Positions 4,123-61,852 of a DNA stretch of 64,000 bases are shown here, one piece after another (the first letter of the stretch is position 1; each line of letters starts with the position of its first letter). The notes below the pieces were generated by a model. It had not been told where the DNA came from, did no database searches, and saw nothing but the letters and a program-made list of their open reading frames with translations. Position numbers and translations under genes: made by a program. The stretch is taken from the IMG/VR virus record IMGVR_UViG_3300030441_000216. One strand, written 5' to 3'. This DNA comes from a virus.

Positions 4123-4152
4123 AAAAGGTGGTTGAAATATACCACCTTTTAT
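4122..4152 (+). terminator. intrinsic terminator
   Basis: AAAGGTGG-loop-CCACCTTT hairpin with an A-run before and a T-run after. Confidence 0.6.
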
Positions 4153-4163
4153 AATGAAAGGAA

Positions 4164-4370
4164 ATGGTAAATATGGTAATTGGAAATTATAAATATGGAA
4201 TTAGTTATCTTCCAGACAATTGTATAGCTTATAGAGACGGTTATAGATATGGTGCATATAAAGAAAACATCAATAACAAAAATGATATACATATAACAGA
4301 ATGGTTCAAAACAAAAGATGAGATACAAAAATTCGTAAATCAACATAAAGAATATGGAAAAGAGGTATAG
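4164..4370 (+). CDS. hypothetical small protein
   Basis: SD GAAAGGAAATGGTAAAT-ATG. Confidence 0.5.
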   Translation: MVNMVIGNYKYGISYLPDNCIAYRDGYRYGAYKENINNKNDIHITEWFKTKDEIQKFVNQHKEYGKEV

Positions 4371-4373
4371 AAT

Positions 4374-6008
4374 ATGTTCACAGATAATAAAGATTTCTAC
4401 CCAACACCACAAAATCTTATAGATAAAATGCTTGATGGATTGGATTGGAAAATGATACATACAGTTCTTGAACCATCAGCAGGTAAGGGAAATATTGTTG
4501 AAGCATTAAAGAAAAAGGAAGATTTTAATAACAGATGGTACACAACAATCAAGTTAAATATTGACTGTATAGAGAATGACGTAAACTTACGAGCAGTATT
4601 AAAGGAAAAGAATTTCAGAGTTGTACATGATGATTTTTTGACATACGACACAATGAAGGAATATGACTTAATTATTATGAATCCTCCGTTCTCAAATGGA
4701 TGTAAACATCTGTTAAAAGCATTGGAAATGCAACAGAGAAATGGCGGTGCTGTTATTTGTCTACTTAACGCAGAGACATTAAAAAATGAATGCAACAATG
4801 AAAGAATAATGCTGAATAGAATGTTAGAAGAATACAATGCAGACATTCAGTATATTCAGGATGCTTTTATGGATGCAGAGAGAAAAACAAACGTTGAAAT
4901 TGCATTGATAAAAGTAAAACTTCCAGATGTACAGAGAGATTCTTTTATCTTTGATAGCTTAGAGAAAGCCAAGGAACAGAGAGAATATACATATAACACA
5001 GAAAACACGCAGCTTGCAGAAAATGATTTTTTAAAGGCAATAGTCGAACAGTATAAAATGGAAGTTGAAGCAGGCGTGAAACTCATTAAAGAGTATTATG
5101 CAATGTCACCACATATCCTATATCAGTTTGGAAAAGACAAGCAGACAGGACAGACAATACAGACTGGCGGTTGCGTGTTAAATCTTAGTATTGGAAAAGA
5201 TAGTGCATCAGTAAACGGATATATAAGAGAAATTCGTGGTAAATATTGGTCAGCATTATTTGATAATCCGAAGTTCATTGGTCAGCTCACAAATAATTTG
5301 CAGAGAGAATACTATAACAAGGTCGAAGAATTAAAAGACTATGAATTTTCGCTGCACAATATATACGAACTGAAAATTGATATGAGCAAGAAAATCATAA
5401 AGGGAATTGAAGATACAATTATTTCACTCTTTGAAGAACTGAGTAATAAATATTCCTATTATGATGAATGCAGTAAGAACATTCATTATTTTAATGGATG
5501 GAAAACAAATAAAGCATGGATTATAAATAAAAAAGTAATCATTCCATTAAGAGGATGGAGAGATTTGGAATATTCATGGGGTGGATTTAAACCAACCGAT
5601 CACGATGTAGTAAGCAAATTAAGAGATATTGAAAAGTGCTTCAATTATCTTGATGGCGGCTTGACAGAAGCAGTTGATTTATTCCAGTCACTAGAATTTG
5701 CTGAAGAATATGGAGAGTCAAAAGATATTGTATTGAAGTATTTCAATGTAACTTTTTATAAGAAGGGAACTTGCCACATTACATTTACAAATGAAGAGTT
5801 ATTGAAAAAGTTCAATATATTTGGAGCACAACATAAAGGATGGCTGCCACCTTCATATGGAAAGAAAAAATATTCTGATATGACATTAGAAGAAAAAGCA
5901 GTTGTAAATGACTTTGAAGGTGAAGTTGAATACAACAAGGTAATGTGCAACACAAGTTATTATCTGGCAGACACAAACAGTATGTTGATGTTGGATATGG
6001 CAGAATAG
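4374..6008 (+). CDS. N6-adenine DNA methyltransferase (gamma-type order) with ~340-aa C-terminal domain
   Basis: FYPTPQ...EPSAGKGN (motif I) and IMNPPF (motif IV NPPF); SD AAGAGGTATAGAAT-ATG. Confidence 0.85.
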   Translation: MFTDNKDFYPTPQNLIDKMLDGLDWKMIHTVLEPSAGKGNIVEALKKKEDFNNRWYTTIKLNIDCIENDVNLRAVLKEKNFRVVHDDFLTYDTMKEYDLIIMNPPFSNGCKHLLKALEMQQRNGGAVICLLNAETLKNECNNERIMLNRMLEEYNADIQYIQDAFMDAERKTNVEIALIKVKLPDVQRDSFIFDSLEKAKEQREYTYNTENTQLAENDFLKAIVEQYKMEVEAGVKLIKEYYAMSPHILYQFGKDKQTGQTIQTGGCVLNLSIGKDSASVNGYIREIRGKYWSALFDNPKFIGQLTNNLQREYYNKVEELKDYEFSLHNIYELKIDMSKKIIKGIEDTIISLFEELSNKYSYYDECSKNIHYFNGWKTNKAWIINKKVIIPLRGWRDLEYSWGGFKPTDHDVVSKLRDIEKCFNYLDGGLTEAVDLFQSLEFAEEYGESKDIVLKYFNVTFYKKGTCHITFTNEELLKKFNIFGAQHKGWLPPSYGKKKYSDMTLEEKAVVNDFEGEVEYNKVMCNTSYYLADTNSMLMLDMAE

Positions 6009-10251: not shown

Positions 10252-10551
10252 ATGATAAGCACAATAGAAAGAGATTTTATAGTAAAAGATGGTGTAGCAA
10301 GTTTTCCGATGAAAGAATATCCAAACTATTGCGGAATTGAAGATATTGGATATATTTCACACGGAGAATGGGCAGACGCAGAACTTGAATACAAGGGAAA
10401 ATTATTCAATGAAAATGTGGTGTCAGATGTAATGTGGGAAAGATTTATTGAAGAATTTCCTGATAAAGATGGAAATTATGAAGCGTTTAATCAGTATATG
10501 TATGACAATAAAGACGAAGTATATGAGTTATTAGAAGGTTGGAGTGATTAA
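10252..10551 (+). CDS. hypothetical protein
   Basis: SD AAAAGGAGATAAAT-ATG. Confidence 0.55.
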   Translation: MISTIERDFIVKDGVASFPMKEYPNYCGIEDIGYISHGEWADAELEYKGKLFNENVVSDVMWERFIEEFPDKDGNYEAFNQYMYDNKDEVYELLEGWSD

Positions 10552-10552
10552 T

Positions 10553-10864
10553 ATGGTAGATCAGTGGACAGGTGAATGGACGGAAGAAAAAGATTATAGT
10601 ACATATCCAAAAGAAAAATGGTGCGATTACGATTATATGGCTGCATGGATCAGAGAACAGAAATACGAACCAGAAACATCAATGAAAAATTTAATAGGAA
10701 TGATTTTTGGTTATTACTTTGAAAATAATGATGTAAAAGAAAGAGGATATTTTGCAATTAAGGATGAAAGAAAATATCCTGATAATCTTATGATATTTGT
10801 TCCAGATGTAGCAGAATATGTATTTGCAAGTGGTGGATTAAGTGAATTTGATTATGAAACATAG
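10553..10864 (+). CDS. hypothetical protein
   Basis: ATG 10553 follows GGTTGGAGTGATTAAT. Confidence 0.55.
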   Translation: MVDQWTGEWTEEKDYSTYPKEKWCDYDYMAAWIREQKYEPETSMKNLIGMIFGYYFENNDVKERGYFAIKDERKYPDNLMIFVPDVAEYVFASGGLSEFDYET

Positions 10865-24177: not shown

Positions 24178-24792
24178 ATGGAAATAAATATAGGTGATAA
24201 ATTTGGTGATTGGACTGTGCTAGCTTTGTCAGATAAAACAGATTCGTCACACAATAAGTATTACACATGTCAATGTGTGTGTGGGACAATTAGAGCAATT
24301 AACAAAGGAAAATTAATTTCAGGAAAGTCTAAGTCTTGTGGTTGTAAAAGAAAATTAGATATGACTAGGAAAATCGTAAAAGATTTATTGTTTTTAGAGC
24401 CTTTTGGCTATGAAAATGGAAAAGTTATATGGAAATGTAAATGTCTAAAATGTGGAAGAATGTGCTACAGAACGGTATCTGAGGCAAAAAAGGTTGGTAC
24501 TTGTGGAAATCATAGAGATGGGAAAACATTAAATGAAAATAGAAAAAAGCGTACACAGGTCGATGGAACGATTGTACAAACTTTAACTCAAAAAGTTTCA
24601 AAAAATAATACTTCAGGTATAAAAGGAGTTTCTTTTGACAAAACCAGAAAATTGTGGGTTGCACAAATTGGATTTCAAGGAAAGAATTATAGTCTCGGTA
24701 AATTTAAAAAAATTGAAGATGCAGAAAAAGCTAGAAAAGATGCAGAAGATAGATTTTTTAAACCGATTATAGATAAGTATAAAAAAGACTGA
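24178..24792 (+). CDS. AP2-domain DNA-binding protein with two N-terminal Cys4 zinc-ribbon motifs
   Basis: GIKGVSFDKTRKLWVAQIGFQGKNYSLGKFKKIEDAEKARKDAEDRF matches the AP2 fold (YRGV...W.A.I...G....LG.F...EEAA.AY). Repeated W.C.C.CG....SCGC motifs. No HNH motif seen. Confidence 0.7.
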   Translation: MEINIGDKFGDWTVLALSDKTDSSHNKYYTCQCVCGTIRAINKGKLISGKSKSCGCKRKLDMTRKIVKDLLFLEPFGYENGKVIWKCKCLKCGRMCYRTVSEAKKVGTCGNHRDGKTLNENRKKRTQVDGTIVQTLTQKVSKNNTSGIKGVSFDKTRKLWVAQIGFQGKNYSLGKFKKIEDAEKARKDAEDRFFKPIIDKYKKD

Positions 24793-24809
24793 TTTGAAAG
24801 GAAGGAAAA

Positions 24810-25142
24810 ATGCCAAGAATTAGAGATTGTGTTATTTGTGGTAAGAGGTTTACAAGTTACCATGGAATAAATGTATGTAGTGAACAATGTAAAATAGAAA
24901 AAAAGAAACGACAAGATGAAAATTCGAATAAAAGAAGATATAGTAAGGAATCGAATACACCAATAATTAAAATCTGTCCTATTTGTGGGGAAAAGTTTGA
25001 AACACTTAGAAGAACATATTGTTCAGAAGAGTGTTCTGAGAAAGCACATAAAATACATGTAAAGGAAATTTCAGATCAATACTATAAAGATCATAGAGAA
25101 GAAATAATTGATAAAGTAAAAGAAAGAAATAATAAATATTAA
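24810..25142 (+). CDS. zinc-ribbon protein (4 CxxC pairs)
   Basis: CVICGK...CSEQC...CPICGEK...CSEEC; SD AAAGGAAGGAAAA-ATG. Confidence 0.55.
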   Translation: MPRIRDCVICGKRFTSYHGINVCSEQCKIEKKKRQDENSNKRRYSKESNTPIIKICPICGEKFETLRRTYCSEECSEKAHKIHVKEISDQYYKDHREEIIDKVKERNNKY

Positions 25143-25149
25143 TTATAAG

Positions 25150-25179
25150 GAAGCAGAAATTGTCTGCTTCTTTTTTTTG
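25150..25179 (+). terminator. intrinsic terminator
   Basis: GAAGCAGA-AATTG-TCTGCTTC followed by TTTTTTTTG. Confidence 0.7.
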
Positions 25180-25205
25180 TTACAAAAAAATGAGGTGAAT
25201 AATGT

Positions 25206-25487
25206 TTGAGTAGATATAAGAACGGAAATCCAAAACATGCAAGTCGATTCATATGTTTAAAATGTATGCAAGAAAATATGTTAGCAAGAGGAATTCAGCG
25301 TAAGAAACAACGTGAGAAATTTCATATTAAAGATCTTACTTGTATATTATGCGGTGGAATTGAAACTAAAAATATGGAAGTAAGGTATTGTGATGATTAT
25401 AAAGAGATTTATACAAAAGCATTAGAGAAAAGAGAGAATTATTATACAGGAGATTTTAGAAAGGTGGTTGATAATTATGTGTTATAA
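25206..25487 (+). CDS. zinc-ribbon protein (CLKC...CILCGG)
   Basis: TTG 25206 lies 7 nt after GAGGTGA. It overlaps the integrase start by 11 nt. Confidence 0.45.
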   Translation: MSRYKNGNPKHASRFICLKCMQENMLARGIQRKKQREKFHIKDLTCILCGGIETKNMEVRYCDDYKEIYTKALEKRENYYTGDFRKVVDNYVL

Positions 25488-26457
25488 AATAGAAGTCCAA
25501 AATAAAAATGCAGAGAAGCTTAACAGGAAGTTGGATGAGTTGAATCTTCCTATATATACGAGAAAATATTTCACTGTTAAAATTGAAAGCAAAGCAGGTG
25601 CATTAAATTATCTTGGAGTTATTGTAGATTTGCTCAATTGGTTTATTGAAGAGAAACTTATTAATAAAACAAATATTTCAGATATTGAGCCATCGGATTT
25701 TACAGATATCATGGCAGAAGATATTACATTATATTTAAAGACAAAAGAACAAAATGGAATGTCGCCAACTACATTAGAAACAAGGAAACATATTATAAGT
25801 AGCTTTTGGGATTATATGAGTAGAGTAAAGGGAACTGAAATTAAAGATGGATTCTTTAAAGATGTAACCTATAAGGGAATTCCATCTGGAAATAATTTAA
25901 CAAAAAAACTTCCAACAGAAAAGCAGCTTAATGATATGGAAGAGAAAATAATGTGGAAAAAGGATGAATGTGTAAGAAATAGGAATATTGCTATCTTTCG
26001 AGTGTTAAGAGGAACTGGAATAAGAGAATCTGAACTTGCAGGTTTAGATTTGTCTAATTTGCATTTAAAAGAAGAAATGCCATACATTACTATTCTTGGC
26101 AAAGGTGTGTACAGAGAACTGCAAAATAGAACAGTATATCTTAGTGGATCTGCTTTAAAAGCATTAAGAGAATGGTTAGAATACAGAAGTACATTGAATA
26201 ATGTTGTAGACAAAGAAGCTGTGTTTATAAATAAAAACGGTACACGTACAACAGAAAGAAATATTAAACAGATATTTGAAAATTATGGCAATGGCATCAC
26301 TCCACATATGATGCGACATTATTATGCCAGTATAATGAACAGAAATGGAAATCTTGCATTTGTACAGCAACAGCTTGGACATAGTAGTGTAAATACGACA
26401 GTTAATAATTATGCAAACGGAGCAGTGGGAATGAAAGATATATTAGACAATATGTGA
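25477..26457 (+). CDS. int: tyrosine site-specific recombinase / phage integrase
   Basis: C-terminal catalytic signature HMMRHYYASIM...LGHSSVNTTVNNYAN (R-H-R-Y family). ATG 25477 follows AAAGGTGGTTGATAATT. Confidence 0.9.
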   Translation: MCYKIEVQNKNAEKLNRKLDELNLPIYTRKYFTVKIESKAGALNYLGVIVDLLNWFIEEKLINKTNISDIEPSDFTDIMAEDITLYLKTKEQNGMSPTTLETRKHIISSFWDYMSRVKGTEIKDGFFKDVTYKGIPSGNNLTKKLPTEKQLNDMEEKIMWKKDECVRNRNIAIFRVLRGTGIRESELAGLDLSNLHLKEEMPYITILGKGVYRELQNRTVYLSGSALKALREWLEYRSTLNNVVDKEAVFINKNGTRTTERNIKQIFENYGNGITPHMMRHYYASIMNRNGNLAFVQQQLGHSSVNTTVNNYANGAVGMKDILDNM

Positions 26458-26463
26458 TATGTA

Positions 26464-26495
26464 AAGGACGATACAGATTAATTTGTGTCGTCCTT
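26464..26495. terminator. bidirectional hairpin between convergent int and repressor genes
   Basis: AAGGACGA-16 nt-TCGTCCTT, 8-bp perfect stem. It overlaps the repressor stop codon. Confidence 0.5.
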
Positions 26496-26748
26496 ATTCT
26501 TACTTGCTTTATTAATTTCAGTTGCATAGGTTAGTAATCGCTTCATTTGATAGTCATCAGTATCTAATATTTCGAGTGGCGAACAATTAAGTTCTTTACA
26601 AATTGCCTCTAAAATATCAAATTTAATTGAAGTTGATTCACCTTTGTAGATTTTGTCAATTGTTGGATATGTTACGCCTATTTTTTTAGCCAGTTCGTAA
26701 CGTGTCATATTTTTTTCTTTTAATTTGTTTTGAATAGATAATTTCATG
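26478..26748 (-). CDS. XRE-family helix-turn-helix transcriptional repressor (CI/Cro-like)
   Basis: MKLSIQNKLKEKNMTRYELAKKIGVTYPTIDKIYKGES matches the XRE HTH. Start ATG (- strand) at 26748 preceded by AGGAGGATTACATTC. The longer ORF-track form (26478..27095) has a spurious hydrophobic extension. Confidence 0.8.
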
Positions 26749-26823
26749 AATGTAATCCTCCTATATACATAGAGTACCATATATAAAAGAAAAAATAAAT
26801 ATAAAAAATAATTGTAATAATAC

Positions 26824-26852
26824 TTGACAATATATATAGTGAAGTATATAAT
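26824..26852 (+). promoter_or_regulatory. sigma70-type promoter (TTGACA-17-TATAAT) with embedded palindromic box
   Basis: TTGACA 26824-29, 17-nt spacer ATATATATAGTGAAGTA, TATAAT 26847-52. It sits 44 nt upstream of the mazF-like GTG start and is divergent from the repressor. Confidence 0.65.
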
Positions 26853-26895
26853 ACAAAATATCAAAGGAACAAACAGAGAAAGGAGGGCTAACATA

Positions 26896-27246
26896 GTGGA
26901 AATTAAACGTGGTGAAATATATTTCGCTGATATAACTAAATATGATTCTAAAGGTTCAGAACAGAGTGGTAGAAGACCAGTACTGATATTGCAGAATGAT
27001 ATTGGCAATAAGTTTAGCCCTACCACTATAATTGCCATCATAACAACAAAATCTAAAAGGGAATTGCCAACACATGTAGAAATACATAAGAACAAGCTTA
27101 ATGGGTTGAAATATGATTCTGTTGTGGCATTAGAGCAGATTTCGACAATTGATAAAGATAGGATTCAATTTAAAATTGGTGAATTATCTGCTGAAGATAA
27201 TTTAAAGGTTATGGAAGCAATGAAAATTAGTTTGGCTATGATATAA
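26896..27246 (+). CDS. mazF: MazF/PemK/EndoA-family endoribonuclease toxin
   Basis: VEIKRGEIYFADIT...GSEQSGRRPVLILQNDIGNKFSPTTIIAIITTK...LPTHVEI...LEQISTIDKDRI is close to Bacillus EndoA/NdoA. GTG 26896 follows AAAGGAGGGCTAACATA. No antitoxin gene lies immediately upstream. Confidence 0.85.
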   Translation: MEIKRGEIYFADITKYDSKGSEQSGRRPVLILQNDIGNKFSPTTIIAIITTKSKRELPTHVEIHKNKLNGLKYDSVVALEQISTIDKDRIQFKIGELSAEDNLKVMEAMKISLAMI

Positions 27247-27264: not shown

Positions 27265-27561
27265 ATGAAGACAGAAACTTATGATTACGCAAGTATAGAT
27301 GAAGCAATTGAAAGATTACAAAAGTTAAAAGCTGAAGGTAAAAATCCTAAAAATGTTGTTATATTAACAATGGATTTTGATAATAATACCTCTTCAAAGA
27401 AAATCACAACTCCTGATGATGGATGTTTATTAGTAAGAAAATCAAAAACAATTATTGTGAACGAAGATGCTTATATCCCTCATATGCAGCTATTCAATAC
27501 CGAACAGGATATAGAGAATATTATTAAAAGAGGAATTATGCATGACATTCTGTTAAGATAA
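27265..27561 (+). CDS. hypothetical protein downstream of the mazF-like gene (antitoxin candidate?)
   Basis: SD GAGTGAGGAGAGAACATT-ATG, 18 nt after the mazF stop. Confidence 0.55.
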   Translation: MKTETYDYASIDEAIERLQKLKAEGKNPKNVVILTMDFDNNTSSKKITTPDDGCLLVRKSKTIIVNEDAYIPHMQLFNTEQDIENIIKRGIMHDILLR

Positions 27562-27589
27562 TTTATTCGAATATTTGTTTGGTTTTATA

Positions 27590-27621
27590 TTGACACAAAC
27601 GTATGTTTGGAGTAATATAAT
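27590..27621 (+). promoter_or_regulatory. candidate sigma70 promoter
   Basis: TTGACA-17 nt-TAATAT/TATAAT in the 300-bp intergenic region. Confidence 0.4.
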
Positions 27622-27640
27622 GGAAGAGGAAATAAAAAAT

Positions 27641-27675
27641 GCTTGACTAGAAAGTTGGCAGCTGGCTAGTCAAGC
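27641..27675. repeat. 10-bp perfect inverted repeat GCTTGACTAG-15 nt-CTAGTCAAGC
   Basis: Read directly; the spacer contains CAGCTG. Confidence 0.5.
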
Positions 27676-27865
27676 AACATACAAAGTCTATTTCTTGGGG
27701 AAATAATCAGTATGCATTCAAATTATACATAGTAATAGTTATAAAAGTCAATTGCATATCAGCAAAATTTCCAATTTTTTATCACAATTTAATAGCATTT
27801 TTAATTTTTCTTTGGTATTTCCAAGGCTTATTAAAGTGCGCTAAAAATCAGAGAGGAGTGTTGTT

Positions 27866-28534
27866 TTGTTTATATTAACAGATGGAAAGAATTATGTTAT
27901 GGAAAATCCTATGAAGTCAGGTGAGTATATGATAACGACTTCGAGTTCTATGGCAAAGGAGTTTACTTACAAACAAGCGAGATCGTTAGTGCAAAACAGT
28001 AGAAAGAAATATTCATGGATTAAAAAATATAATCTTATTGATGTGGATACAGGACAGAAATCTGATAAATCTCTTTATTATAGAGGAAATGCAAATGTCT
28101 ATACAGGAGATGAAGGTAATTTCGATTATGCTTTATTAGATAAGATTGAATCAGAAGCCAATTCTATCTTAGGGTTAGCAGGTTGGGACGACAATCAACT
28201 TATTACATATAAAAATTTATTAAATACTGAACTATCAAAGTGCGATAGCGCAGAAAGTGATATTAATCATGCATTAGAGAAGTATAAGAAAGTACATAAT
28301 GGTAAGAAACCACAAGCTCATAAAGTAGCAAAGATAGGATATTTGCTTGATGATATTCGTGATAAACATAAACGAATAAAGCAGTGTATAAGATATGTTC
28401 AGGTTATGCAAGATGCGATAGTCAAAGGATATAACATTGAGAAGATAAAATTAGAACTTAGTAAAGTCACTAGCGATGATTACAAGGGAAGAACGGAATA
28501 TTGGAAAATGGCTAATGATATTTTGGAGGATTAA
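27866..28534 (+). CDS. hypothetical protein (222 aa), first gene of the DUF262 operon
   Basis: TTG 27866 lies 5 nt after AGAGAGGAGTG. Confidence 0.6.
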   Translation: MFILTDGKNYVMENPMKSGEYMITTSSSMAKEFTYKQARSLVQNSRKKYSWIKKYNLIDVDTGQKSDKSLYYRGNANVYTGDEGNFDYALLDKIESEANSILGLAGWDDNQLITYKNLLNTELSKCDSAESDINHALEKYKKVHNGKKPQAHKVAKIGYLLDDIRDKHKRIKQCIRYVQVMQDAIVKGYNIEKIKLELSKVTSDDYKGRTEYWKMANDILED

Positions 28535-28536
28535 TT

Positions 28537-28728
28537 ATGGTGATATGTAGAAACTGTTTAATTCCTATGGTAGAGACTATGAGTTTTCAACAAGGAGAAA
28601 GAAATCGACATGATAGATATTGTAAGTGTCCAAAATGTAAAAGAGAAACTAAACATATTAAAGTTATGAATTCTGAATTGTCTTTCGGGGAATATGTGAA
28701 TAAAGAATTGCGAAAGGCAGGTAGATGA
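28537..28728 (+). CDS. zinc-ribbon small protein (CRNC...CKCPKC)
   Basis: SD TTTGGAGGATTAATT-ATG, 2 nt after the upstream stop. Confidence 0.55.
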   Translation: MVICRNCLIPMVETMSFQQGERNRHDRYCKCPKCKRETKHIKVMNSELSFGEYVNKELRKAGR

Positions 28729-28729
28729 A

Positions 28730-30952
28730 ATGATTAATAAAGAGATGATGAGGATTATTAATAGTAATCCTGAGATGATGAAAATCATTAATGATTATTC
28801 AGATGATGAAAACAAAAAATTAAAAAAATTATGTCACAAGATTTGGCTTGGGAAGATTGATATGTATGAATATGATGATTTATATGATGTCGCTATACAA
28901 TGCTTAATGGAATCTGTGTATAGTTTTAATTCAGAGAAAGCAAATTTTGAAACATATTTAACAGGAAACATTAAAAGAAAATTTGATACATGGATGCGAG
29001 ATAATAGATTTCGACTAAAAAGAAATAATCTTGTCACGGATGAAAAAGGAAAAATAATTTATGACGAAAACGGCACTCCAACGATAATTAAAAATATCTC
29101 ATTAGATGCACATACGGAAGATGATAATAACTTAATAGAGAAATTAGATTCAGGAATAAATATAGAAGATGAATGTAAATTTAATTTTGATTCTGATGAA
29201 AAAGTAGAAAAGTTTCTCAATTCATTATCTAAAATACAAAAAAATATCTTGCTTATGCGGATGGAGGATTTTCCTTCTGAGAAAATCAAAGAAGAATTAG
29301 GTATTTCTAATGGAGAATATAACAGTGCAATGAAAGCAATAAAAATGAACAAAGGGCTTTCGATGTTCTCAATAAATAAAAATGATGGTGGTTATAATAT
29401 GGAGGTAAATATGGAAGATAGAATTATTGAAATTAGCGAATCTGAAAATTACAGAATGGATAAATATAGTATGTACTCGTTGTTACAAGATAAAAAAAAT
29501 GGGGATATGAATTGCAACTATATCTTGCAGCGTGAACCGTTTCAATGGAGTAAGGAAGAAGCAAATAGATATTTCTGTCGTATTCTTAGCAATCTTCCAA
29601 TTCCTGAAATTATACTTTGTGAACAGAAGAAAAAGGGATTAACTATATCACATTTGATTGATGGATTGCAGAGACTTTCATATGCAGAAGCTTTTAAGGA
29701 GAATCGAATTAAGATTGGTTCGGCAGGAGCGGAAAGACACTTAATTCAGTATAGAGATTATGTTTTAGATGATAATGGAAATCGTGTGCCTGATGAAGAA
29801 GGATTTCCTGAGTATGAAATGAAAGTTTTTGATGTTATTGGAAAATATTATAAAGATTTACCAGATGAGTTAAAGAAAAGATTTAATAATTTTAATATTA
29901 ATGTAACAAAGTTTTTTGATTGTACTGACGAGCAGATTGCCGATCATATTCGTGATTACAATAATCATGCAAGTATGAATAAAGAACAGGGTGGATTACT
30001 CAACGTATCAGCCGATATTGCTGGACATATTAAAAAGATTTCTCAAAAAAATTCATTTTTCAAAAACTGCGGTAAGTTTACAAATAATAATTCAATTAAA
30101 GGAAAACTTGAAAGAGTTGTTGTTGAATCAATTATGTTGTTATTCTTTCGTGAATCGTGGAGAGCGAGTTTAGATTCGATTTATAAATTCGTCAATGAAA
30201 ATACAACAGAACAGCAATTTTTAAAATTGAATTCACAGTTTAACAGATTGGAACTAGCATTAGGTGATAATAACAAAGATTTATCAAAGGAATTATTTAC
30301 ACCTACAACAATGCCAATGTGGATTTCAGTGTTTGATAAATTTACTACATATAATATAGAAGATAGTCGTTTCGTAGATTTCTTAAATGCATATAGCATA
30401 GAACTCAAAGACAAAGAAATCAATGGTATATCAATGGCTGACTTTAAGGATCAACAGACCAAGAAAAAGACAACTATTGTAGGTAAGATTGATTTACTTA
30501 TAAGGCTTATGAATGATTTTTTACATATTGATACAACTGAAACAGAGAATAATATAGAGTCTTCTGATAATAAGGTAACAAATGATAATGAATCTGAACA
30601 GAATACGGGTTGTGATGATGAAATATTATCATTTGTTAAAGAAAATGTTGCCGATGATATAGAGGATATTGATATAAAGGAATACCAGGATTTCGTGGAT
30701 GTGTATTTAGATATAAATAATCCATTATATATACAATGCAAGGCAGCATTAATGGCATTAACAGCATATGCTTACAGAACCGAAAAGGATGTTGAATTGG
30801 CGACCTGGTTGGAAAATTATCAGAAGAATGCTACTGATAAGAATTATAGTCCATCACAAGATGTTAATTATAAGTATATTAAGATGGATTTTGATAATTA
30901 CATAAACTTCTTAAATAATGTGAAGAAAGGAGGGATAATTAATGTTAATTAA
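28730..30952 (+). CDS. fusion protein: sigma-70-family region 2 / region 4-like N-terminal domain plus DUF262 (ParB/GmrS-like) domain
   Basis: DLYDVAIQCLMESVYSFNSEKANFETYLTGNIKRKFDTWMR resembles sigma region 2 (DL.QEG..GL..AV.KFD...G..FSTYA.WWIR). LSKIQKNILLMRMEDFPSEKIKEELGISNGEYNSAMKAIK resembles the region 4 HTH. YILQREPFQWSKEEANRYFCRILSNLPIPEIIL...ISHLIDGLQRL matches the DUF262 QR..W / DGQQR motifs. An in-frame internal GGAGGTAAAT-ATG lies at 29411. Confidence 0.8.
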   Translation: MINKEMMRIINSNPEMMKIINDYSDDENKKLKKLCHKIWLGKIDMYEYDDLYDVAIQCLMESVYSFNSEKANFETYLTGNIKRKFDTWMRDNRFRLKRNNLVTDEKGKIIYDENGTPTIIKNISLDAHTEDDNNLIEKLDSGINIEDECKFNFDSDEKVEKFLNSLSKIQKNILLMRMEDFPSEKIKEELGISNGEYNSAMKAIKMNKGLSMFSINKNDGGYNMEVNMEDRIIEISESENYRMDKYSMYSLLQDKKNGDMNCNYILQREPFQWSKEEANRYFCRILSNLPIPEIILCEQKKKGLTISHLIDGLQRLSYAEAFKENRIKIGSAGAERHLIQYRDYVLDDNGNRVPDEEGFPEYEMKVFDVIGKYYKDLPDELKKRFNNFNINVTKFFDCTDEQIADHIRDYNNHASMNKEQGGLLNVSADIAGHIKKISQKNSFFKNCGKFTNNNSIKGKLERVVVESIMLLFFRESWRASLDSIYKFVNENTTEQQFLKLNSQFNRLELALGDNNKDLSKELFTPTTMPMWISVFDKFTTYNIEDSRFVDFLNAYSIELKDKEINGISMADFKDQQTKKKTTIVGKIDLLIRLMNDFLHIDTTETENNIESSDNKVTNDNESEQNTGCDDEILSFVKENVADDIEDIDIKEYQDFVDVYLDINNPLYIQCKAALMALTAYAYRTEKDVELATWLENYQKNATDKNYSPSQDVNYKYIKMDFDNYINFLNNVKKGGIINVN

Positions 30953-32487: not shown

Positions 32488-32560
32488 TGGTCTGTGGTGA
32501 AGTGGTCAACACAACAGATTTTGATTCTGTCATTCGTGGGTTCAAGTCCCACCAGCCTAG
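32488..32560 (+). tRNA. tRNA-Gln(UUG)
   Basis: Hand-folded 73-nt cloverleaf: U8, A14, anticodon loop UUUUGAU (U33, anticodon UUG, A37), T-arm GTGGG-TTCAAGT-CCCAC, U1-A72. One acceptor mismatch (4-69) and one D-stem mismatch. The antisense ORF 32417..32638 shows the typical GWWDLNP artefact. Confidence 0.6.
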
Positions 32561-37639: not shown

Positions 37640-37685
37640 TACCATATATAGTATTAAAAACAAGCAATATATACTATATATGGTA
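37640..37685. promoter_or_regulatory. paired palindromic boxes TACCATATATAGTA-18 nt-TACTATATATGGTA
   Basis: The two 14-mers are exact reverse complements. They lie between gene 37239 and gene 37742. Confidence 0.55.
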
Positions 37686-37741
37686 TATATTTTACATTGG
37701 AATGAAACGCACATTTCTTGCGGAATTTTTGGAGGTAAAAT

Positions 37742-42163: not shown

Positions 42164-42370
42164 ATGAAATTAGTGCAAAATTATAGAGCTGATGGAAGAA
42201 TACCAACTGATGATGAAATAAATCAGTGTATTGAAATTGCAAATAGAGAGGATTGTATCGTTCATTTGGAATGGGTTTTTCCATATAGCGGAAGATATTC
42301 AGTAGATATTGTCAAAGGAATGGCTTACGAAGCTGTAAAAAATAAGTTGCCAAAATGTTATCCAGTATAA
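42164..42370 (+). CDS. hypothetical small protein
   Basis: ATG 42164 follows GAAAGGAGAGAGAATTAT. Confidence 0.5.
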   Translation: MKLVQNYRADGRIPTDDEINQCIEIANREDCIVHLEWVFPYSGRYSVDIVKGMAYEAVKNKLPKCYPV

Positions 42371-42381
42371 GGGGGATTGTA

Positions 42382-42657
42382 ATGAGTAAAGCTGTTTTAA
42401 TGATGGATATGCCAAATAGTTGTGATAAATGTCCATGTTTTTGTGGTCATTATTCTGATATGTGTTGCATGGCTTTAAATAACCGTACAATTAATTATCC
42501 TTATCCGAAAGATTTTAGACAAAGATGGTGTCCATTAAAAGAATTGCCAGAAGAGACACACAATAATGAGTATATGGACGAATATTGCGATGGTTATGAT
42601 GATGGTTGGAACTCATTAAGAAAGAAAATTTTAGGCGAAGATGAGGAGGATAAATAG
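42382..42657 (+). CDS. Cys-rich hypothetical protein (CDKCPCFCGH...CCM)
   Basis: ATG 42382 follows AAGGGGGATTGTA. Confidence 0.5.
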   Translation: MSKAVLMMDMPNSCDKCPCFCGHYSDMCCMALNNRTINYPYPKDFRQRWCPLKELPEETHNNEYMDEYCDGYDDGWNSLRKKILGEDEEDK

Positions 42658-43161
42658 ATGACAGTTGGTGTAAAAATATGTGAAGCAAAAGATACAATTA
42701 AGAAATACGAAAACCTTGGGTATAGATTTGTTAGTGAAGAAAATGTGGGTGAAGGATATTTAAAACTTAACTTCAGAGATCCAATTGTTCCAGAAGAGAA
42801 TAATACAACAGATATTCAATTTCATGAAGGTGATTATGTAGAAAATAGTGATGGCAAAGTTGGATATATTTCATCCATTTGTCATTGTGATGAGTGCAAG
42901 AGGCGTGGATTCTTTGAACCAACTATTAAATATTCCGATGGAACAACAGATTACATTAGCAATTATTCTGTTAAAACTGTTTCGTCTGATTATAAGCAGA
43001 TTGGAACTCAGAAGTTTTCAACAGAAGATATATTGAAAAATAAAATAGCTGCACTTGAAAAAGAGAATAAAGAATTAACTGAAAAGGTAAATTATTTGAC
43101 TGATAGAAATCATGAATTGCTCAGTCTATGCTGCTTTTATGATATGGAAAGGAACGGATGA
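42658..43161 (+). CDS. hypothetical protein with C-terminal coiled coil
   Basis: SD GAGGAGGATAAATAG-ATG; contains CHCDECKRRG. Confidence 0.6.
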   Translation: MTVGVKICEAKDTIKKYENLGYRFVSEENVGEGYLKLNFRDPIVPEENNTTDIQFHEGDYVENSDGKVGYISSICHCDECKRRGFFEPTIKYSDGTTDYISNYSVKTVSSDYKQIGTQKFSTEDILKNKIAALEKENKELTEKVNYLTDRNHELLSLCCFYDMERNG

Positions 43162-43165
43162 GACA

Positions 43166-43363
43166 ATGGTAGATATTCAATGTAAAGACGGAAAATATAT
43201 TATTGACGCAAGAATTCATAGTGAAGTTGATACAAATGATATTGCAAAAGTGCAGGAAAGATTTACTTCTGATTGTGCTTATGAGTTTGCAGAAGCTATG
43301 AGAGAAGCAGTAAACGTTAGCCATTTGGTAATGAAAGAACAAAGAAAAGAGGTAACAAAATGA
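43166..43363 (+). CDS. hypothetical small protein, start uncertain
   Basis: ORF-track 43112..43363, with ATG 43166 chosen just after the upstream stop. Confidence 0.4.
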   Translation: MVDIQCKDGKYIIDARIHSEVDTNDIAKVQERFTSDCAYEFAEAMREAVNVSHLVMKEQRKEVTK

Positions 43364-43872
43364 GAGAAACATTAATTGTTGTAGATATGCAGAATGATTT
43401 TATTGATGGAACACTTGGTACAAAGGAAGCACAGGCGATTGTATCAAATGTAGCAAAGAAAATTAAGGAGTACAAGGATGCTGGTAAACAGGTAATCTTT
43501 ACAAGAGACACACATCCCGAGAATTATTTAGAGACATATGAAGGTATACATCTTCCTGTTACTCACTGTGTAAAGAATACTGCTGGTTGGCAGATTTTAG
43601 ATAAGTTAGATTTTGATATTGATAATGACATTCTGATTGACAAAATTACTTTTGGATGGACTCATTGGGATGATTTTAGATTTGAAAGCGTTGAGATTTG
43701 CGGATTATGCACCGATATCTGCGTGATTTCAAATGCACTTATTATTAGAGCAAACTATCCTGAGATTGATATTACAGTAGATGCAAGCTGTTGTGCAGGT
43801 GTCACACCTGATACTCACAAGGCTGCATTAGCAACTATGAAGATGTGTCAGATTGAAGTGATTGGAGAGTAG
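43360..43872 (+). CDS. pncA: isochorismatase-family hydrolase, nicotinamidase (PncA)-like
   Basis: LIVVDMQNDFIDG (Asp), K in the KNTAGW region, and the catalytic Cys context CGLCTDICVISNAL. Confidence 0.8.
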   Translation: MRETLIVVDMQNDFIDGTLGTKEAQAIVSNVAKKIKEYKDAGKQVIFTRDTHPENYLETYEGIHLPVTHCVKNTAGWQILDKLDFDIDNDILIDKITFGWTHWDDFRFESVEICGLCTDICVISNALIIRANYPEIDITVDASCCAGVTPDTHKAALATMKMCQIEVIGE

Positions 43873-47785: not shown

Positions 47786-47829
47786 ACTATATATAGTGCT
47801 TATAGAAAATATAGACACTATATATAGTG
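47786..47829. promoter_or_regulatory. paired palindromic boxes TACTATATATAGTG-18 nt-CACTATATATAGTG
   Basis: Lies between nadE and gene 47890; the second box is a perfect 14-bp palindrome. Confidence 0.55.
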
Positions 47830-47889
47830 ATATTTTTACAAAGAAACATAGATTTCTTTTGGAGAATAAATTAGCAGGAGGTAAGCAAT

Positions 47890-49987: not shown

Positions 49988-50851
49988 ATGTTAGAGATTA
50001 ACAAAATATACAATGAAGATTGTCTTGAAGGTATGAAAAAGATTGATGATAAGTCAATTGATTTTATCTTCACGGATTTGCCTTATAATACGACCAATAA
50101 TTTTTGGGAATGTGAAATGCCGTTAAATGATTATGTCGAGTTATCAGGTCAATATTTTTATGAAACAGATTTATTTAAGTTAGCTCAAGTAACAAATAGT
50201 AGTCTTGAATATACAAGAGATTGGTTTTATGAGAACAAAAAAGATGGTTTATGGACTCATTACAATCGAATCATCAAAGATAATGGTTGTATTGCATTAT
50301 GGGCGCAGTCACCATTTGATAAGAGACTCGCTTGTAGTAATGAAAAATTGTATCGCTATGAATGGATTATCGAAAAGACCAAAGCAACTGGTCATCTAAA
50401 TGCTAAGAAAATGCCTATGAAGGCACACGAAAATGTTTTGATTTTCTATAAAAAACTCCCTACTTACAATCCACAAATGACAGAAGGACATACACCTGTT
50501 CATTCTTATACAAAACATACAACAGATGGCAACTGTTATGGTGCTACAAAGACTGGTATTTCAGGTGGTGGCAGTACACAAAGATATCCAAGAGATGTTC
50601 TGCAGTTCAAGTGGGATACTCAGAAAAGTAGCTTACATCAGTGCCAAAAGCCTGTTGAAGCATGTGAGTATTTTATTAAGACCTACACCAATCCAGGAGA
50701 TTTAGTTCTTGATTCGTGTGCAGGAAGTTGTACAACTGCAGTTGCAGCTTTGAATATAGGTAGAAATTATATATGTTTTGAGAAGGACAAGGATATTTTT
50801 GAGGTTGGAAGTAAGAGAGTAGCTGAGTGCAAAGGAGAGAAAAATGACTGA
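49988..50851 (+). CDS. DNA methyltransferase, N4/N6 class (DPPY-type)
   Basis: FIFTDLPYNT (DPPY-like) and LVLDSCAGSCTTAVAALNIGRNYICFEKD (AdoMet-binding FxGxG-like, at the C-terminus). Confidence 0.8.
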   Translation: MLEINKIYNEDCLEGMKKIDDKSIDFIFTDLPYNTTNNFWECEMPLNDYVELSGQYFYETDLFKLAQVTNSSLEYTRDWFYENKKDGLWTHYNRIIKDNGCIALWAQSPFDKRLACSNEKLYRYEWIIEKTKATGHLNAKKMPMKAHENVLIFYKKLPTYNPQMTEGHTPVHSYTKHTTDGNCYGATKTGISGGGSTQRYPRDVLQFKWDTQKSSLHQCQKPVEACEYFIKTYTNPGDLVLDSCAGSCTTAVAALNIGRNYICFEKDKDIFEVGSKRVAECKGEKND

Positions 50852-60732: not shown

Positions 60733-60777
60733 AAAATCAAATACTATATATAGTGATTAGATAGATTAAAACTACTA
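60733..60777. promoter_or_regulatory. paired palindromic boxes TACTATATATAGTG-17 nt-TACTATATATAGTG
   Basis: Direct copies 31 bp apart, between gene 60291 and gene 60830. Confidence 0.55.
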
Positions 60778-60829
60778 TATATAGTGACAAAATAGACAAG
60801 AAATATCGGTTTCCTTGAGAGGTAAAATA

Positions 60830-61805: not shown

Positions 61806-61852
61806 TACCATATATAGTGAGCGTAAAGCACAACAAACACTATATATGGTAT
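61806..61852. promoter_or_regulatory. paired palindromic boxes TACCATATATAGTG-19 nt-CACTATATATGGTA
   Basis: The two boxes are exact reverse complements. They lie upstream of gene 61904. Confidence 0.55.

Follow-up and report, generated by a model that had tools for sequence, protein, structure and literature searches.

A phage sigma factor joined to a nuclease-less ParB/DUF262 module

The 64,000-nucleotide stretch of viral DNA analyzed here (the window; IMG/VR record IMGVR_UViG_3300030441_000216) encodes a sigma-70-family factor covalently joined to a ParB/DUF262 module without a nuclease domain. Comparison with related phages indicates that the two form a conserved pair, in most relatives encoded by separate genes, which is probably an SOS-controlled phage transcription module. 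The 740-aa ORF in the window (the long isoform; plus strand, 28730..30952, ATG start) has four parts: a sigma-70-family core comprising regions 2, 3.2-like and 4, a ParB/DUF262 NTPase domain, a BrxU/SspE-like helical domain and a small helical tail. A sequence-only reading had proposed such a sigma-DUF262 fusion, with these coordinates, strand and length, and the fusion proved to be real. The ORF is unbroken in many independent assemblies (97-100% identity), with no frameshift or stop splitting it, which rules out an assembly artefact. Profile searches recovered both the sigma-like and the DUF262 homology. Single-sequence Pfam searches placed all three domains where they had been proposed, each under the Pfam gathering score: Sigma70_r2 at aa 31-93 (E=9e-5), Sigma70_r4_2 at aa 157-201 (E=4e-3) and GmrSD_N/DUF262 at aa 265-406 (E=1.4e-4).

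The AlphaFold model of the fusion (pLDDT 87.6) matches many sigma-2 and sigma-4 domains on one side and BrxU, SspE and ParB/Noc on the other; its pTM is 0.62, with no confident contact between the sigma and DUF262 halves. All parts are under purifying selection, dN/dS being 0.013 in DUF262, 0.07 in the helical domain, 0.12 in the tail and 0.15 in sigma, which indicates that both the sigma and the DUF262 half are functional. Literature searches gave no description of a sigma-DUF262 pair or fusion, and PHROGs holds no family for either half. Source annotations call these fusion proteins simply "sigma-70 family".

The sigma half, all on the plus strand, consists of region 2 (28802..29029, aa about 25-100), a linker with a region 3.2 (finger)-like motif, SLDAH..ED..L.EKL (29030..29197), and the region 4 helix-turn-helix (29198..29368, aa about 157-213). 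Region 2 is present by both sequence and fold, and so is the helix-turn-helix of region 4, as expected of a sigma-70 family member. NCBIfam TIGR02937 covers aa 31-195 as one stretch (E=1e-8). When a profile of the 62-member family was compared with solved structures, it matched SigA (3.5e-9) and SigH (3mzy, 2.6e-8, aa 39-194), the alignments running through regions 2, 3.2-like and 4. Here the family consensus "SLDaPi..ed..LgD.I.sd" aligns with "SLEtPIGkEEDSrLGDFIESD" of SigA. In Pfam searches across the 62 members, Sigma70_r2 was matched in 32 and Sigma70_r4_2 in 15. We know of no role for a region 3.2-like motif outside RNA polymerase, and its conservation favours a functional sigma over a DNA-binding head borrowed for another role. 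Searches with the sigma half gave zero matches in plasmids and only one marginal match in phages.

The DUF262 (GmrSD_N) domain, an NTPase-type member of the ParB/Srx superfamily, occupies aa about 241-420 (29450..29989, plus strand). GmrSD_N was matched in 44 of the 62 family members, and the best match in the defence library was PADLOC NsnA (1.5e-9). The motifs QR267-268..W273, E298, DGLQR311-315 and N411..M416..Q420 are invariant or nearly so; the N-terminal DUF262 domain with QR..W and DGxQR motifs that characterizes GmrSD-type proteins is therefore present in the fusion. Foldseek similarity of the model to ParB/Noc is at the superfamily level only (probabilities 0.25-0.63). The next domain is all-helical in the model (29990..30529, plus strand, aa about 421-600), and Foldseek alignments of the fusion model to BrxU and SspE reach 455-567 columns. 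We provisionally assign this middle domain as the ParB-associated DNA-binding domain of NsnA, SspE and GmrSD, a concept introduced previously (PMC12065111). An acidic disordered linker (residues 606-626 of the model) then precedes a small all-helical C-terminal domain (30611..30937, plus strand, aa about 628-736, modelled helices at 628-732), in which W693, Q710 and N713 are conserved. No fold or family match was obtained for this small domain. No solved structure was matched by the sequence of the C-terminal module, searched singly or as a profile, and fold comparison is its sole link to BrxU and SspE.

Sigma and DUF262 form a conserved pair, fused or split

The window is a member of a family of temperate Lachnospiraceae phages with genomes of roughly 90-200 kb; these large phages are widespread in human and animal guts. 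We sampled relatives through the tyrosine integrase (25477..26457, plus strand; Pfam Phage_integrase, E=9e-29) as an anchor, which gave an unbiased set of 73. Sigma and DUF262 are encoded by two adjacent genes in 54 of them and by a fused gene in 15, and the sigma gene lies further upstream in the remaining 4; not one of the 73 phages is without the pair. An earlier set of loci, found through the fused protein itself, contained 108 fused and 9 split cases and overstated fusion, the ratio being reversed by sampling through the integrase. The separate, adjacent genes of most relatives had been overlooked in the sequence-only reading.

In every member examined, the pair, whose sigma is a divergent representative of the sigma-70 family, sits 1-3.5 kb downstream of the integrase / CI-type repressor / MazF module. 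Adjacency of the two holds down to about 26% identity, and otherwise near-identical phages swap the pair as a unit. The location had been taken for a defence-island position. Presence at the same place in 73 of 73 relatives, together with the dN/dS of DUF262, is instead the behaviour of a core gene and not of variable cargo. Copies of the element inside a complete Lacrimispora chromosome, along with the integrase gene, show that it integrates. Cultured carriers include Lacrimispora sp. HJ-01, Faecalicatena contorta NLAE-zl-C134 and Lachnospiraceae bacterium 28-4. The DUF262 module also occurs with no sigma gene nearby, in large Bacillus phages and in 127-166-kb non-mobilizable phage-like "plasmids" of the Bacillus group, and should thus be able to function alone.

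The fusion retains the start of the partner gene

The internal ribosome-binding site proposed for the fusion was confirmed in the sequence: a Shine-Dalgarno (SD) GGAGG (29401-29405), the spacer TAAAT and an in-frame ATG (29411-29413, Met228) lie on the plus strand at 29401..29413. In the model, they fall in a disordered linker (residues 218-234), and initiation at Met228 would give a predicted short isoform of 513 aa. Among the 69 ORFs of at least 100 aa in the window, this is the sole internal in-frame GGAGG followed by ATG at 4-10 nt. A strong SD with an in-frame ATG is kept in the linker of 45 of 48 non-redundant fused lineages; such sites number 46 in 1,632 linker codons versus 11 in 28,646 other codons, making them about 70-fold commoner in the linker. 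The SD is read as xxG-GAG-Gxx with a variable amino acid ahead of GAG, and it uses GAG, which makes up just 28% of the Glu codons gene-wide. Divergence at synonymous sites is reduced in the linker. These patterns indicate that selection at the nucleotide level acts on the internal start signal.

The split relatives account for this conservation. Their junctions consist of a stop codon, about 15 nt holding a strong SD, and then an ATG, all at the position of the linker, and the SD and ATG inside fused genes correspond to the ribosome-binding site and start of the separate DUF262 gene. The internal start is conserved because it is the retained start of a partner gene that is separate in most relatives. 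The window thus represents the minority, fused state with the partner's start retained. In its lineage, the stop codon is missing and the former spacer is translated as the disordered linker, giving the 740-aa fusion. With the partner's SD and ATG in place, a free 513-aa DUF262 protein should also be made, and this comparative evidence gives strong support to the earlier suggestion that one ORF yields two products.

Neighbouring genes and the promoter of the cassette

The gene order given in the sequence-only reading stands: integrase, repressor (minus strand), MazF, a 98-aa ORF, a 222-aa ORF, a zinc ribbon and the fusion. The HTH_3 (CI/Cro-type) repressor (26478..26750, minus strand; Pfam HTH_3), found in 61 of the 73 relatives, is divergent from the gene for a MazF/PemK-type toxin (26824..27246, plus strand; Pfam PemK_toxin, E=2e-30), which lies upstream of the sigma gene in 72 of 73. 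A perfect TTGACA-17-TATAAT promoter of MazF at 26824-26852 is overlapped by a palindrome (I4), and the true start of MazF is probably near 26893. We rejected MazF processing at UACAU upstream of SDs, as TACAT was neither enriched, depleted nor positionally concentrated.

The first gene behind the LexA-type promoter described below encodes a 222-aa protein (27866..28534, plus strand; SD GAGAGGAG), for which family searches gave no match. It is followed by a 63-aa Cys4 zinc-ribbon protein (28537..28728, plus strand) that has one weak PHROG zinc-finger match and whose stop codon ends 1 nt ahead of the ATG of the fusion. These genes and the fusion had been described as a three-gene operon, which we reject as an obligate unit: the 222-aa gene is present in 46 and the zinc-ribbon gene in 48 of the 73 relatives, and the former is mosaic relative to the sigma gene, being near-identical between loci whose fusions share only about 35% identity and located downstream in one locus (L082).

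The cassette has a sigma-A-type promoter (TTGACA, 17 nt, TAATAT; 27590..27618, plus strand; 10/12 in a consensus scan). LexA (Cheo)-like box 1, CGAATATTTGTTTG (27568..27581, plus strand), lies directly upstream of its -35, and box 2, CAAACGTATGTTTG (27596..27609, plus strand), fills the -35/-10 spacer. By sequence, this is the arrangement of a LexA regulon member, with a GAACN4GTT(C/T) operator overlapping a sigma-A promoter, here as two boxes bracketing the -35. Box 1 agrees with 8 of the 10 specified positions of the operator consensus CGAACNNNNGTTCG (PMC4234289) and differs at one position from the clostridial form GAACnnnnGTTT; in the 64 kb, no more than 6 sites score at least 8/10. Since both boxes of the window deviate by one base from the clostridial consensus (8/10 versus CGAACNNNNGTTCG), LexA repression may be weak here. 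Relatives carry near-consensus boxes at the positions of these two. They also conserve the block TATTGACA...TATAAT-like, and diverse lineages show one recurring layout: a box, about 8 nt, TTGACA, a second box and a TATAAT-like element. At least one box of 9/10 or better was found in 119 of 184 loci, and of 168 boxes scoring at least 9/10 (199 loci), 155 fall within 2.5 kb upstream of the sigma/DUF262 gene. The conserved layout predicts SOS induction of the cassette, with host LexA probably binding the promoter boxes. These boxes had been overlooked in the sequence-only reading.

Directly downstream of the predicted transcription start, an imperfect palindrome (I8; 27640..27676, plus strand) would form a leader hairpin (-22.8 kcal/mol, z=-4.0 versus shuffles), and an Rfam search of the long leader found no known RNA. 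The motif AGAGAATA is strongly strand-biased in the window (42 to 0, about 9 expected) and also in relatives, often lying between a stop codon and the next SD. As a promoter of the phage sigma it was not established: 576 distinct instances have no fixed upstream partner and are mostly inside genes. No sigma-specific promoter could be defined.

Discussion

A probable transcription module and its alternatives

A fusion to sigma, in a cassette behind a LexA-type promoter, points to a phage transcription module triggered by DNA damage rather than to a restriction enzyme. Overall we favour an SOS-controlled module as the better-than-even reading. Of the options offered in the sequence-only reading, the second, in which a phage sigma carries an unusual C-terminal module, is the best fit. 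In a lysogen, LexA of the host would sit on the operators to either side of the -35 in the cassette promoter, which is of the sigma-A type. Upon DNA damage LexA would leave, and the host holoenzyme would transcribe the genes for the 222-aa protein, the zinc ribbon, sigma and DUF262. The phage sigma would then bring core RNA polymerase to the promoters of the phage, in the manner of SigN on pBS32. The DUF262 partner could be a positive, NTP-gated DNA-binding cofactor that acts as a dimer, in fused lineages of a long and a short isoform, and that tethers the sigma-polymerase complex to phage DNA or licenses it there. We offer such a tethering or licensing role tentatively, as a possibility with rather less than an even chance. 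The function of the partner is suggested by analogy, with DNA binding by the helical domain in SspE (PMC12065111), with the ParB-family proteins KorB and VirB acting on transcription, and with clamp-coupled late transcription in T4 (PMC11790492). More doubtful is a complete lytic switch, where removal of LexA yields sigma and the DUF262 NTPase is an obligatory partner that loads on phage DNA and tethers or licenses the sigma-polymerase. Under that scheme the partner perhaps recognises the phage's own methylation, and long and short isoforms would act as mixed dimers in fused lineages. Several points count against the favoured reading: the LexA-like boxes of the window deviate from consensus, no sigma-specific promoter emerged, the model gives no confident contact between the halves, prophages also keep exclusion genes at sites beside the repressor, and the DUF262 module is found elsewhere without sigma.

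The sequence-only reading had favoured a GmrSD-like restriction enzyme, type IV-like and dependent on DNA modification, in which the sigma-like head serves as sensor. GmrSD_N does match the DUF262 domain, the nearest solved structures are BrxU and SspE, and two methyltransferase-type proteins were noted in the genome. Yet a DUF1524/HNH or other nuclease domain is found in 0 of 62 family members, residues 396-740 of the model are helical with two isolated bridge residues only and no beta-beta-alpha finger, and past residue 420 there is no conserved catalytic His/Asp/Glu pattern. Moreover, the N-terminal part retains the core-polymerase features of sigma factors, and the supposed head is a separate protein in most relatives. 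Without a nuclease domain the restriction-enzyme reading fails, and we consider it highly improbable. Prophage exclusion or abortive infection, with DUF262 sensing incoming or modified DNA and sigma as an effector that outcompetes the housekeeping sigma, would accord with the position next to the repressor and MazF toxin genes, with the PADLOC NsnA matches, with the sensor role of DUF262 in GmrSD, SspE and probably Menshen (PMC12065111), and with the intrinsic toxicity of SigN through competition for core polymerase (PMC10601692). We find it quite improbable given that all 73 relatives carry the pair in synteny, unlike variable cargo, that the DUF262 domain is under very strong purifying selection, that LexA boxes at the promoter imply a response to the lysogen's own DNA damage and not to infection, and that the Menshen partners NsnB and NsnC are absent nearby. 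As a system, Menshen itself was rejected, since neither an AAA_15/DUF3696 gene nor an effector gene lies within 10 kb, be it in the window's own contigs or in relatives.

If DUF262 were instead a negative regulator, an anti-sigma that frees sigma on NTP or DNA binding and acts in cis when fused, as regulatory C-terminal extensions do in some ECF sigma groups, the sigma-then-partner order and tight coupling would resemble sigma/anti-sigma operons, in which the anti-sigma is encoded downstream and co-translated, as for ECF anti-sigmas. Fused and split forms coexist here as they do in ECF sigmas with C-terminal extensions, and the internal start would provide additional free regulator. What makes this unlikely is that DUF262 is far more conserved than sigma (0.013 versus 0.15), which suggests an invariant ligand and not co-evolution with a fast-changing sigma; homologous DUF262 modules, besides, bind DNA and NTPs and exist without any sigma, and structure comparison matched no anti-sigma fold. 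The two proteins might also be unrelated neighbours, the fusion being a tolerated loss of a stop codon and DUF262 serving, for example, partition or protection of a plasmid-like prophage. The ParB-superfamily fold of DUF262 and its occurrence alone in large Bacillus phages and the 127-166-kb "plasmids" are in line with this idea, which we nonetheless regard as having only a slim chance: the two are adjacent in 73 of 73 relatives and stay so at an identity of about 26%, dozens of lineages keep the fusion under purifying selection, near-identical phages exchange the pair as a unit, no ParA-type ATPase lies within 10 kb and the element integrates. Plasmid partition as such is unlikely on the latter two grounds, the plasmid homologs being sigma-less DUF262 proteins only.

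Relation to known systems

The closest parallel to an SOS-controlled phage transcription module is SigN (ZpdN) of the Bacillus subtilis plasmid-prophage pBS32, likewise a sigma-70-family factor on a large Firmicute mobile element. We know of no ParB/DUF262 partner or fusion for SigN, and no sequence relationship to the sigma of the fusion was detected. SigN is an autoactivating sigma that drives a regulon on the element, and host LexA keeps its sigma-A promoter repressed until DNA damage turns it on (PMC6751061, PMC10601692); the promoter layout of the window cassette matches that of SigN, with LexA control predicted. GmrSD, BrxU and SspE share with the fusion an N-terminal DUF262 domain (QR..W, DGxQR) followed by a helical domain (PMC12065111), whereas their activity-defining DUF1524/HNH nuclease is absent from the fusion, which differs further in having a sigma partner and in being a core phage gene, not a host defence gene. 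Menshen NsnA has the same two-domain core (ParB-DUF262 plus ParBDB). Menshen is defined by NsnA followed by the ABC-type ATPase NsnB and the effector NsnC, and type II NsnA proteins carry extra N-terminal domains (PMC12065111); described sigma-related NsnA heads resemble region 1.1 only, while the head of the fusion is a complete sigma core (2, 3.2-like, 4).

ECF sigmas with C-terminal extensions and sigma/anti-sigma operons likewise have a sigma fused to or followed by a regulatory or sensory partner, with both arrangements within one family. Here, in contrast, the partner is a ParB-superfamily NTPase/DNA-binding module and no known anti-sigma or extension fold. The likeness to T4 late transcription (gp55 sigma, gp33, gp45 clamp), KorB and VirB is one of analogy only; DUF262 domains are not known to form sliding clamps. 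The in-ORF SD and ATG at a domain boundary recall T7 gene 4A/4B and the long and short forms of CheA, where an internal start yields a full-length and an N-terminally truncated protein; the short form of the fusion is predicted. Unlike in those cases, the internal start of the fusion is, as split relatives show, the kept start of a formerly separate gene.

Significance

To our knowledge, nearly all described DUF262/ParB-like NTPases are sensors of anti-phage nucleases. In this phage family a phage sigma is invariably accompanied by a nuclease-less DUF262 protein, in some phages as a covalent extension, and in annotation the DUF262 match of this protein could be misread as a restriction enzyme. 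The series of fused and split genes with a kept internal start is a clean natural case of a gene fusion that probably preserves both products. As cultured carriers exist, the predictions made here are directly testable. If the two halves act together, they would establish a novel type of sigma cofactor and give the ParB superfamily a new function in transcription, and would show a route by which these abundant prophages are induced, from LexA to sigma to phage genes. If the complete lytic switch is true, it would be a functional analogue of T4 late transcription with its sliding-clamp coupling, though made from a ParB-like module, and would be the first non-defence, transcriptional role of a sigma-partnered DUF262 protein.

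Domain architecture of the fusion

The 740-residue sigma-70/DUF262 open reading frame proposed in the sequence-only reading was reproduced at 28730-30952 on the plus strand, with an ATG start, and its domains are now secured at the family level. A 222-aa ORF (27866-28534) and a 63-aa Cys4 zinc-ribbon gene (28537-28728) come before it, the stop codon of the latter and the ATG of the fusion being one base apart; farther upstream are genes for a tyrosine integrase, a MazF/PemK toxin and, on the minus strand, an HTH_3 repressor. Single-sequence Pfam searches matched Sigma70_r2 (residues 31-93), Sigma70_r4_2 (157-201) and GmrSD_N (DUF262, 265-406), all with scores under the gathering thresholds, and further evidence on domain identity was therefore required. 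The general NCBIfam sigma-70 model spans residues 31-195 unbroken (E=1e-8). A word-indexed search returned 886 homologs, among them a big set of 732-735-aa proteins with full-length identity of 67-68%, many with precomputed PF04542 and PF03235 matches; when representatives clustered at 50% identity were searched exhaustively, 211 clusters reached E <=1e-30. A family profile built from 62 diverse full-length members matches dozens of solved sigma factors (best SigA, 3.5e-9, and SigH, 3mzy, 2.6e-8), and the residue-level alignment runs in the order region 2, region 3.2-like motif "SLDaPi..ed..LgD.I", region 4. Individually, GmrSD_N was matched by 44, Sigma70_r2 by 32 and Sigma70_r4_2 by 15 of the 62 members. 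The DUF262 motifs QR..W, E298, DGxQR and N..PMN..Q are invariant or almost so down to approximately 25% identity.

The AlphaFold model of the fusion is confident (pLDDT 87.6, from 88 sequences); it has disordered linkers at residues 146-150, 218-234 and 606-626 and, save for two isolated bridge residues, is helical beyond residue 395. The resulting map, in which we have high confidence, comprises sigma region 2 (residues ~25-100), a 3.2-like linker (~101-156), sigma region 4 (~157-213), a disordered linker (~214-240), the ParB-DUF262 domain (~241-420), a helical domain (~421-600), an acidic linker (~601-627) and a small helical tail (~628-736). Provisionally, we take the helical domain to be the counterpart of "ParBDB", a DNA-binding domain reported in NsnA, SspE and GmrSD (PMC12065111). 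A PHROG search gave no match for either the sigma or the DUF262 half, and the sigma half had a single match (E=7e-3) among 50,697 deposited phage genomes.

Homologs consisting of DUF262 and the helical module, with no sigma part, were observed in 142-166-kb Bacillus phages, for example at 42285-43472 in Bacillus phage FADO (L010), and on non-mobilizable "plasmids" (127-166 kb; search matches H9-H16) from Bacillus, Paenibacillus and Geobacillus. The FADO homolog lies near the NAD-salvage genes Prs and NAMPT, and NAMPT is also present in the window phage (44675-46177). A 176-kb faecal phage (L009, MT835469.1) that carries a 26%-identical fusion has three additional small ParB-like ORFs (4051-4503, 5139-5669 and 10268-10852) near the integrase and immediately after the fusion; one encodes a 176-aa DUF262-like protein (QRGHVW...VDGLQRLTS), and the remaining two have motifs of the DGWHR and IDGY types.

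Fused and split forms and the internal start

Because the first loci had been retrieved with the fused protein itself, we re-sampled relatives through the integrase (71-100% identity); counts cover the 73 integrase-anchored loci with sufficient downstream DNA. Both halves were present in 73/73 loci, 1.1-3.5 kb downstream of the integrase, as two adjacent genes in 54, fused in 15 and with sigma slightly farther upstream in 4. In some loci the sigma ORF stops exactly at the linker position, and DUF262 begins there as a gene of its own with a Shine-Dalgarno (SD) sequence and an ATG ("...ILF-stop-TTAGGAGGAAGCAAGTT-ATG..."). The fused linker of the window therefore represents an old intergenic spacer that is read through, and Met228 the old start of the partner gene. 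In locus L132 the integrase, 222-aa and zinc-ribbon genes are identical to those of the window, yet the sigma/DUF262 allele is split and its DUF262 part shares just 47% identity with the window's; the pair is therefore swapped as a unit. Purifying selection acts on all parts of the protein: dN/dS is lowest in DUF262 (0.013), followed by the helical domain (0.07), the tail (0.12) and the sigma part (0.15).

An internal SD-ATG ahead of DUF262, also put forward in the sequence-only reading, was found at 29401-29413 on the plus strand (GGAGG at 29401-29405, TAAAT, ATG at 29411, which is Met228) within the disordered linker, and it is the only such in-frame site among the 69 window ORFs of at least 100 aa. 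In 45 of 48 non-redundant fused lineages, a strong SD precedes an in-frame ATG by 3-11 nt, with the QR motif following 34-50 codons farther downstream. Strong SD-ATG sites number 46 per 1,632 linker codons versus 11 per 28,646 other codons, an approximately 70-fold enrichment. The SD follows the codon pattern xxG-GAG-Gxx: the preceding residue can be M, V, L, T, E, K, R or Q, yet its codon keeps a G in third position, and the central glutamate is almost invariably encoded by GAG, although GAG makes up just 28% of the Glu codons across these genes. Synonymous divergence is lowered in the linker (dS 0.14), whereas the sigma, DUF262 and helical domains on either side have values of 0.24-0.34. Judged from these sequence patterns, the constraint acts on nucleotides, and the internal start is a genuine conserved signal.

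LexA-like boxes at the cassette promoter

The cassette has its own sigma-A-type promoter at 27590-27618 (TTGACA, 17 nt, TAATAT). Aligning the upstream regions of relatives revealed CGAAC-N4-GTTCG palindromes around it. Among 199 loci (2.8 Mb) there are 168 sites matching this motif in at least 9 of 10 positions, 155 of them no more than 2.5 kb ahead of the sigma/DUF262 gene, and at least one box of 9/10 or better is present in 119 of 184 loci. The layout recurs in diverse lineages: a box, ~8 nt, TTGACA, a second box in the spacer and a TATAAT-like element. The window boxes, CGAATATTTGTTTG at 27568-27581 and CAAACGTATGTTTG at 27596-27609, each differ by one base from the clostridial form; just six sites in the 64 kb reach 8/10 or better, these two among them. 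The LexA operator of B. subtilis is GAACN4GTTC and the clostridial search motif is GAACnnnnGTT(T/C) (PMC4234289). From these boxes we thus predict that the cassette is repressed by LexA and SOS-inducible.

Behind the LexA-type promoter, a stable hairpin or palindrome at 27640-27676 (TGCTTGACTAG...CTAGTCAAGCA; -22.8 kcal/mol, z=-4.0), for which Rfam holds no matching family, lies at the start of a ~240-nt leader that extends to the 222-aa gene. In this interval, inspection of the alignment by eye revealed tRNA-like sequences in relatives L038, L059, L076, L077, L082 and L087, and the stretch looks like a variable insertion point. The window itself has one tRNA-Gln (32488-32560), downstream of a Band-7 gene.

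No sigma-specific promoter could be defined. The 8-mer AGAGAATA occurs 42 times on the plus strand of the window (copies include 48695, 49918, 53670, 55795, 62168, 62637 and 63207) and never on the minus strand, with ~9 expected, and shows a similar strand bias in relatives among loci L001-L090 (63/0, 21/1 and 18/0). It frequently lies directly after a stop codon, 8-15 nt ahead of the next SD; most copies are within genes, and no fixed upstream partner was found across 576 distinct instances. A promoter -10-like element, an RNA element and coding bias are all candidate explanations.

The element and the neighbouring genes

The element is a large temperate phage. The window has ~30% G+C, a strongly positive GC skew, almost all genes on one strand, and NAD-salvage and methyltransferase genes; the DNA-methyltransferase-type proteins observed are an MTase + DUF4942 protein and an N6_N4_Mtase (4374-6008, 49988-50851). 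Relatives were found on viral contigs of ~90-206 kb and in Lachnospiraceae genomes (Roseburia, Coprococcus, Hungatella, Blautia, Butyrivibrio, Faecalicatena and a complete Lacrimispora chromosome). Carriers available in culture are Lacrimispora sp. HJ-01, Faecalicatena contorta NLAE-zl-C134 and Lachnospiraceae bacterium 28-4.

Among the 73 integrase-anchored relatives, the upstream MazF is present in 72, the repressor in 61, the zinc ribbon in 48, the 222-aa gene in 46 and a 98-aa gene in 45, and the 222-aa gene is mosaic with respect to the sigma gene. Sigma and DUF262 thus form the obligate unit, in place of the three-gene operon suggested earlier.

MazF (26824-27246, E=2e-30) directly adjoins the repressor; no antitoxin gene is recognisable before it, the 98-aa gene downstream (27265-27561) had no match in a family search, and processing of transcripts at UACAU by the phage MazF was unsupported. 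Palindromes of type ACTATATATAGTG occur as a single copy over a perfect TTGACA-17-TATAAT promoter ahead of MazF (26820-26847) and in close pairs at four other intergenic sites (37645-37690, 47786-47830, 60743-60790 and 61811-61850). They are candidate operators of the CI-type repressor, which may govern several early promoters. Immediately upstream of the integrase is a run of cysteine-rich small proteins (24178-25487). One of them, 204 aa long, matches an AP2 DNA-binding domain (E=2e-7, under the Pfam cut-off), and two more are encoded by zinc-ribbon-like ORFs (24810-25142 and 25206-25487).

Possible roles of the sigma/DUF262 pair

GmrSD, BrxU and SspE are defined by a nuclease domain, whereas the window protein has none: DUF1524 or any other nuclease family was matched by 0 of the 62 members, and the family alignment contains no conserved catalytic-type residues past residue 420. 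The family search and the model thus rule out a restriction enzyme of this kind, and with it the type IV-like restriction favoured in the sequence-only reading. The sole PADLOC match was to NsnA of the Menshen system, which is ruled out as well, since its defining NsnB and NsnC genes are missing around the locus, both on the window's own contigs and in relatives.

The closest precedent is SigN, a sigma factor of the plasmid-prophage pBS32, which is expressed from a LexA-repressed sigma-A promoter and goes on to activate its own expression as well as over 20 promoters of the element (PMC6751061, PMC10601692). By analogy, DNA damage would remove LexA, cassette expression would follow, and the phage sigma would redirect core polymerase to phage promoters; genuine engagement of polymerase by the sigma half is supported by the conserved region 3.2-like motif. 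An SOS-controlled phage transcription module is the probable function. The main mechanistic rival concerns the DUF262 partner, which might be anti-sigma-like. We favour instead a positive, NTP-gated DNA-binding cofactor, because DUF262 is extremely conserved compared with the faster-evolving sigma, because homologous modules bind DNA and NTPs (PMC12065111), and because promoter control is known for the ParB-family proteins KorB and VirB and for the T4 gp45 clamp (PMC11790492). That such a cofactor would specifically tether or license the sigma-polymerase complex is a tentative suggestion.

No sigma/DUF262 pair or fusion was described in the literature searched, and sources naming these proteins call them "sigma-70 family" only. 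Each part of the module is of a known kind, and the whole is a sigma factor of a phage or element whose ParB-like partner is novel; what is new is that the two are partners, that they occur together throughout a widespread family of gut phages, the series of fused and split forms with a retained internal start, and the predicted LexA wiring. If the DUF262 partner senses modified DNA, the methylation state of the phage could matter.
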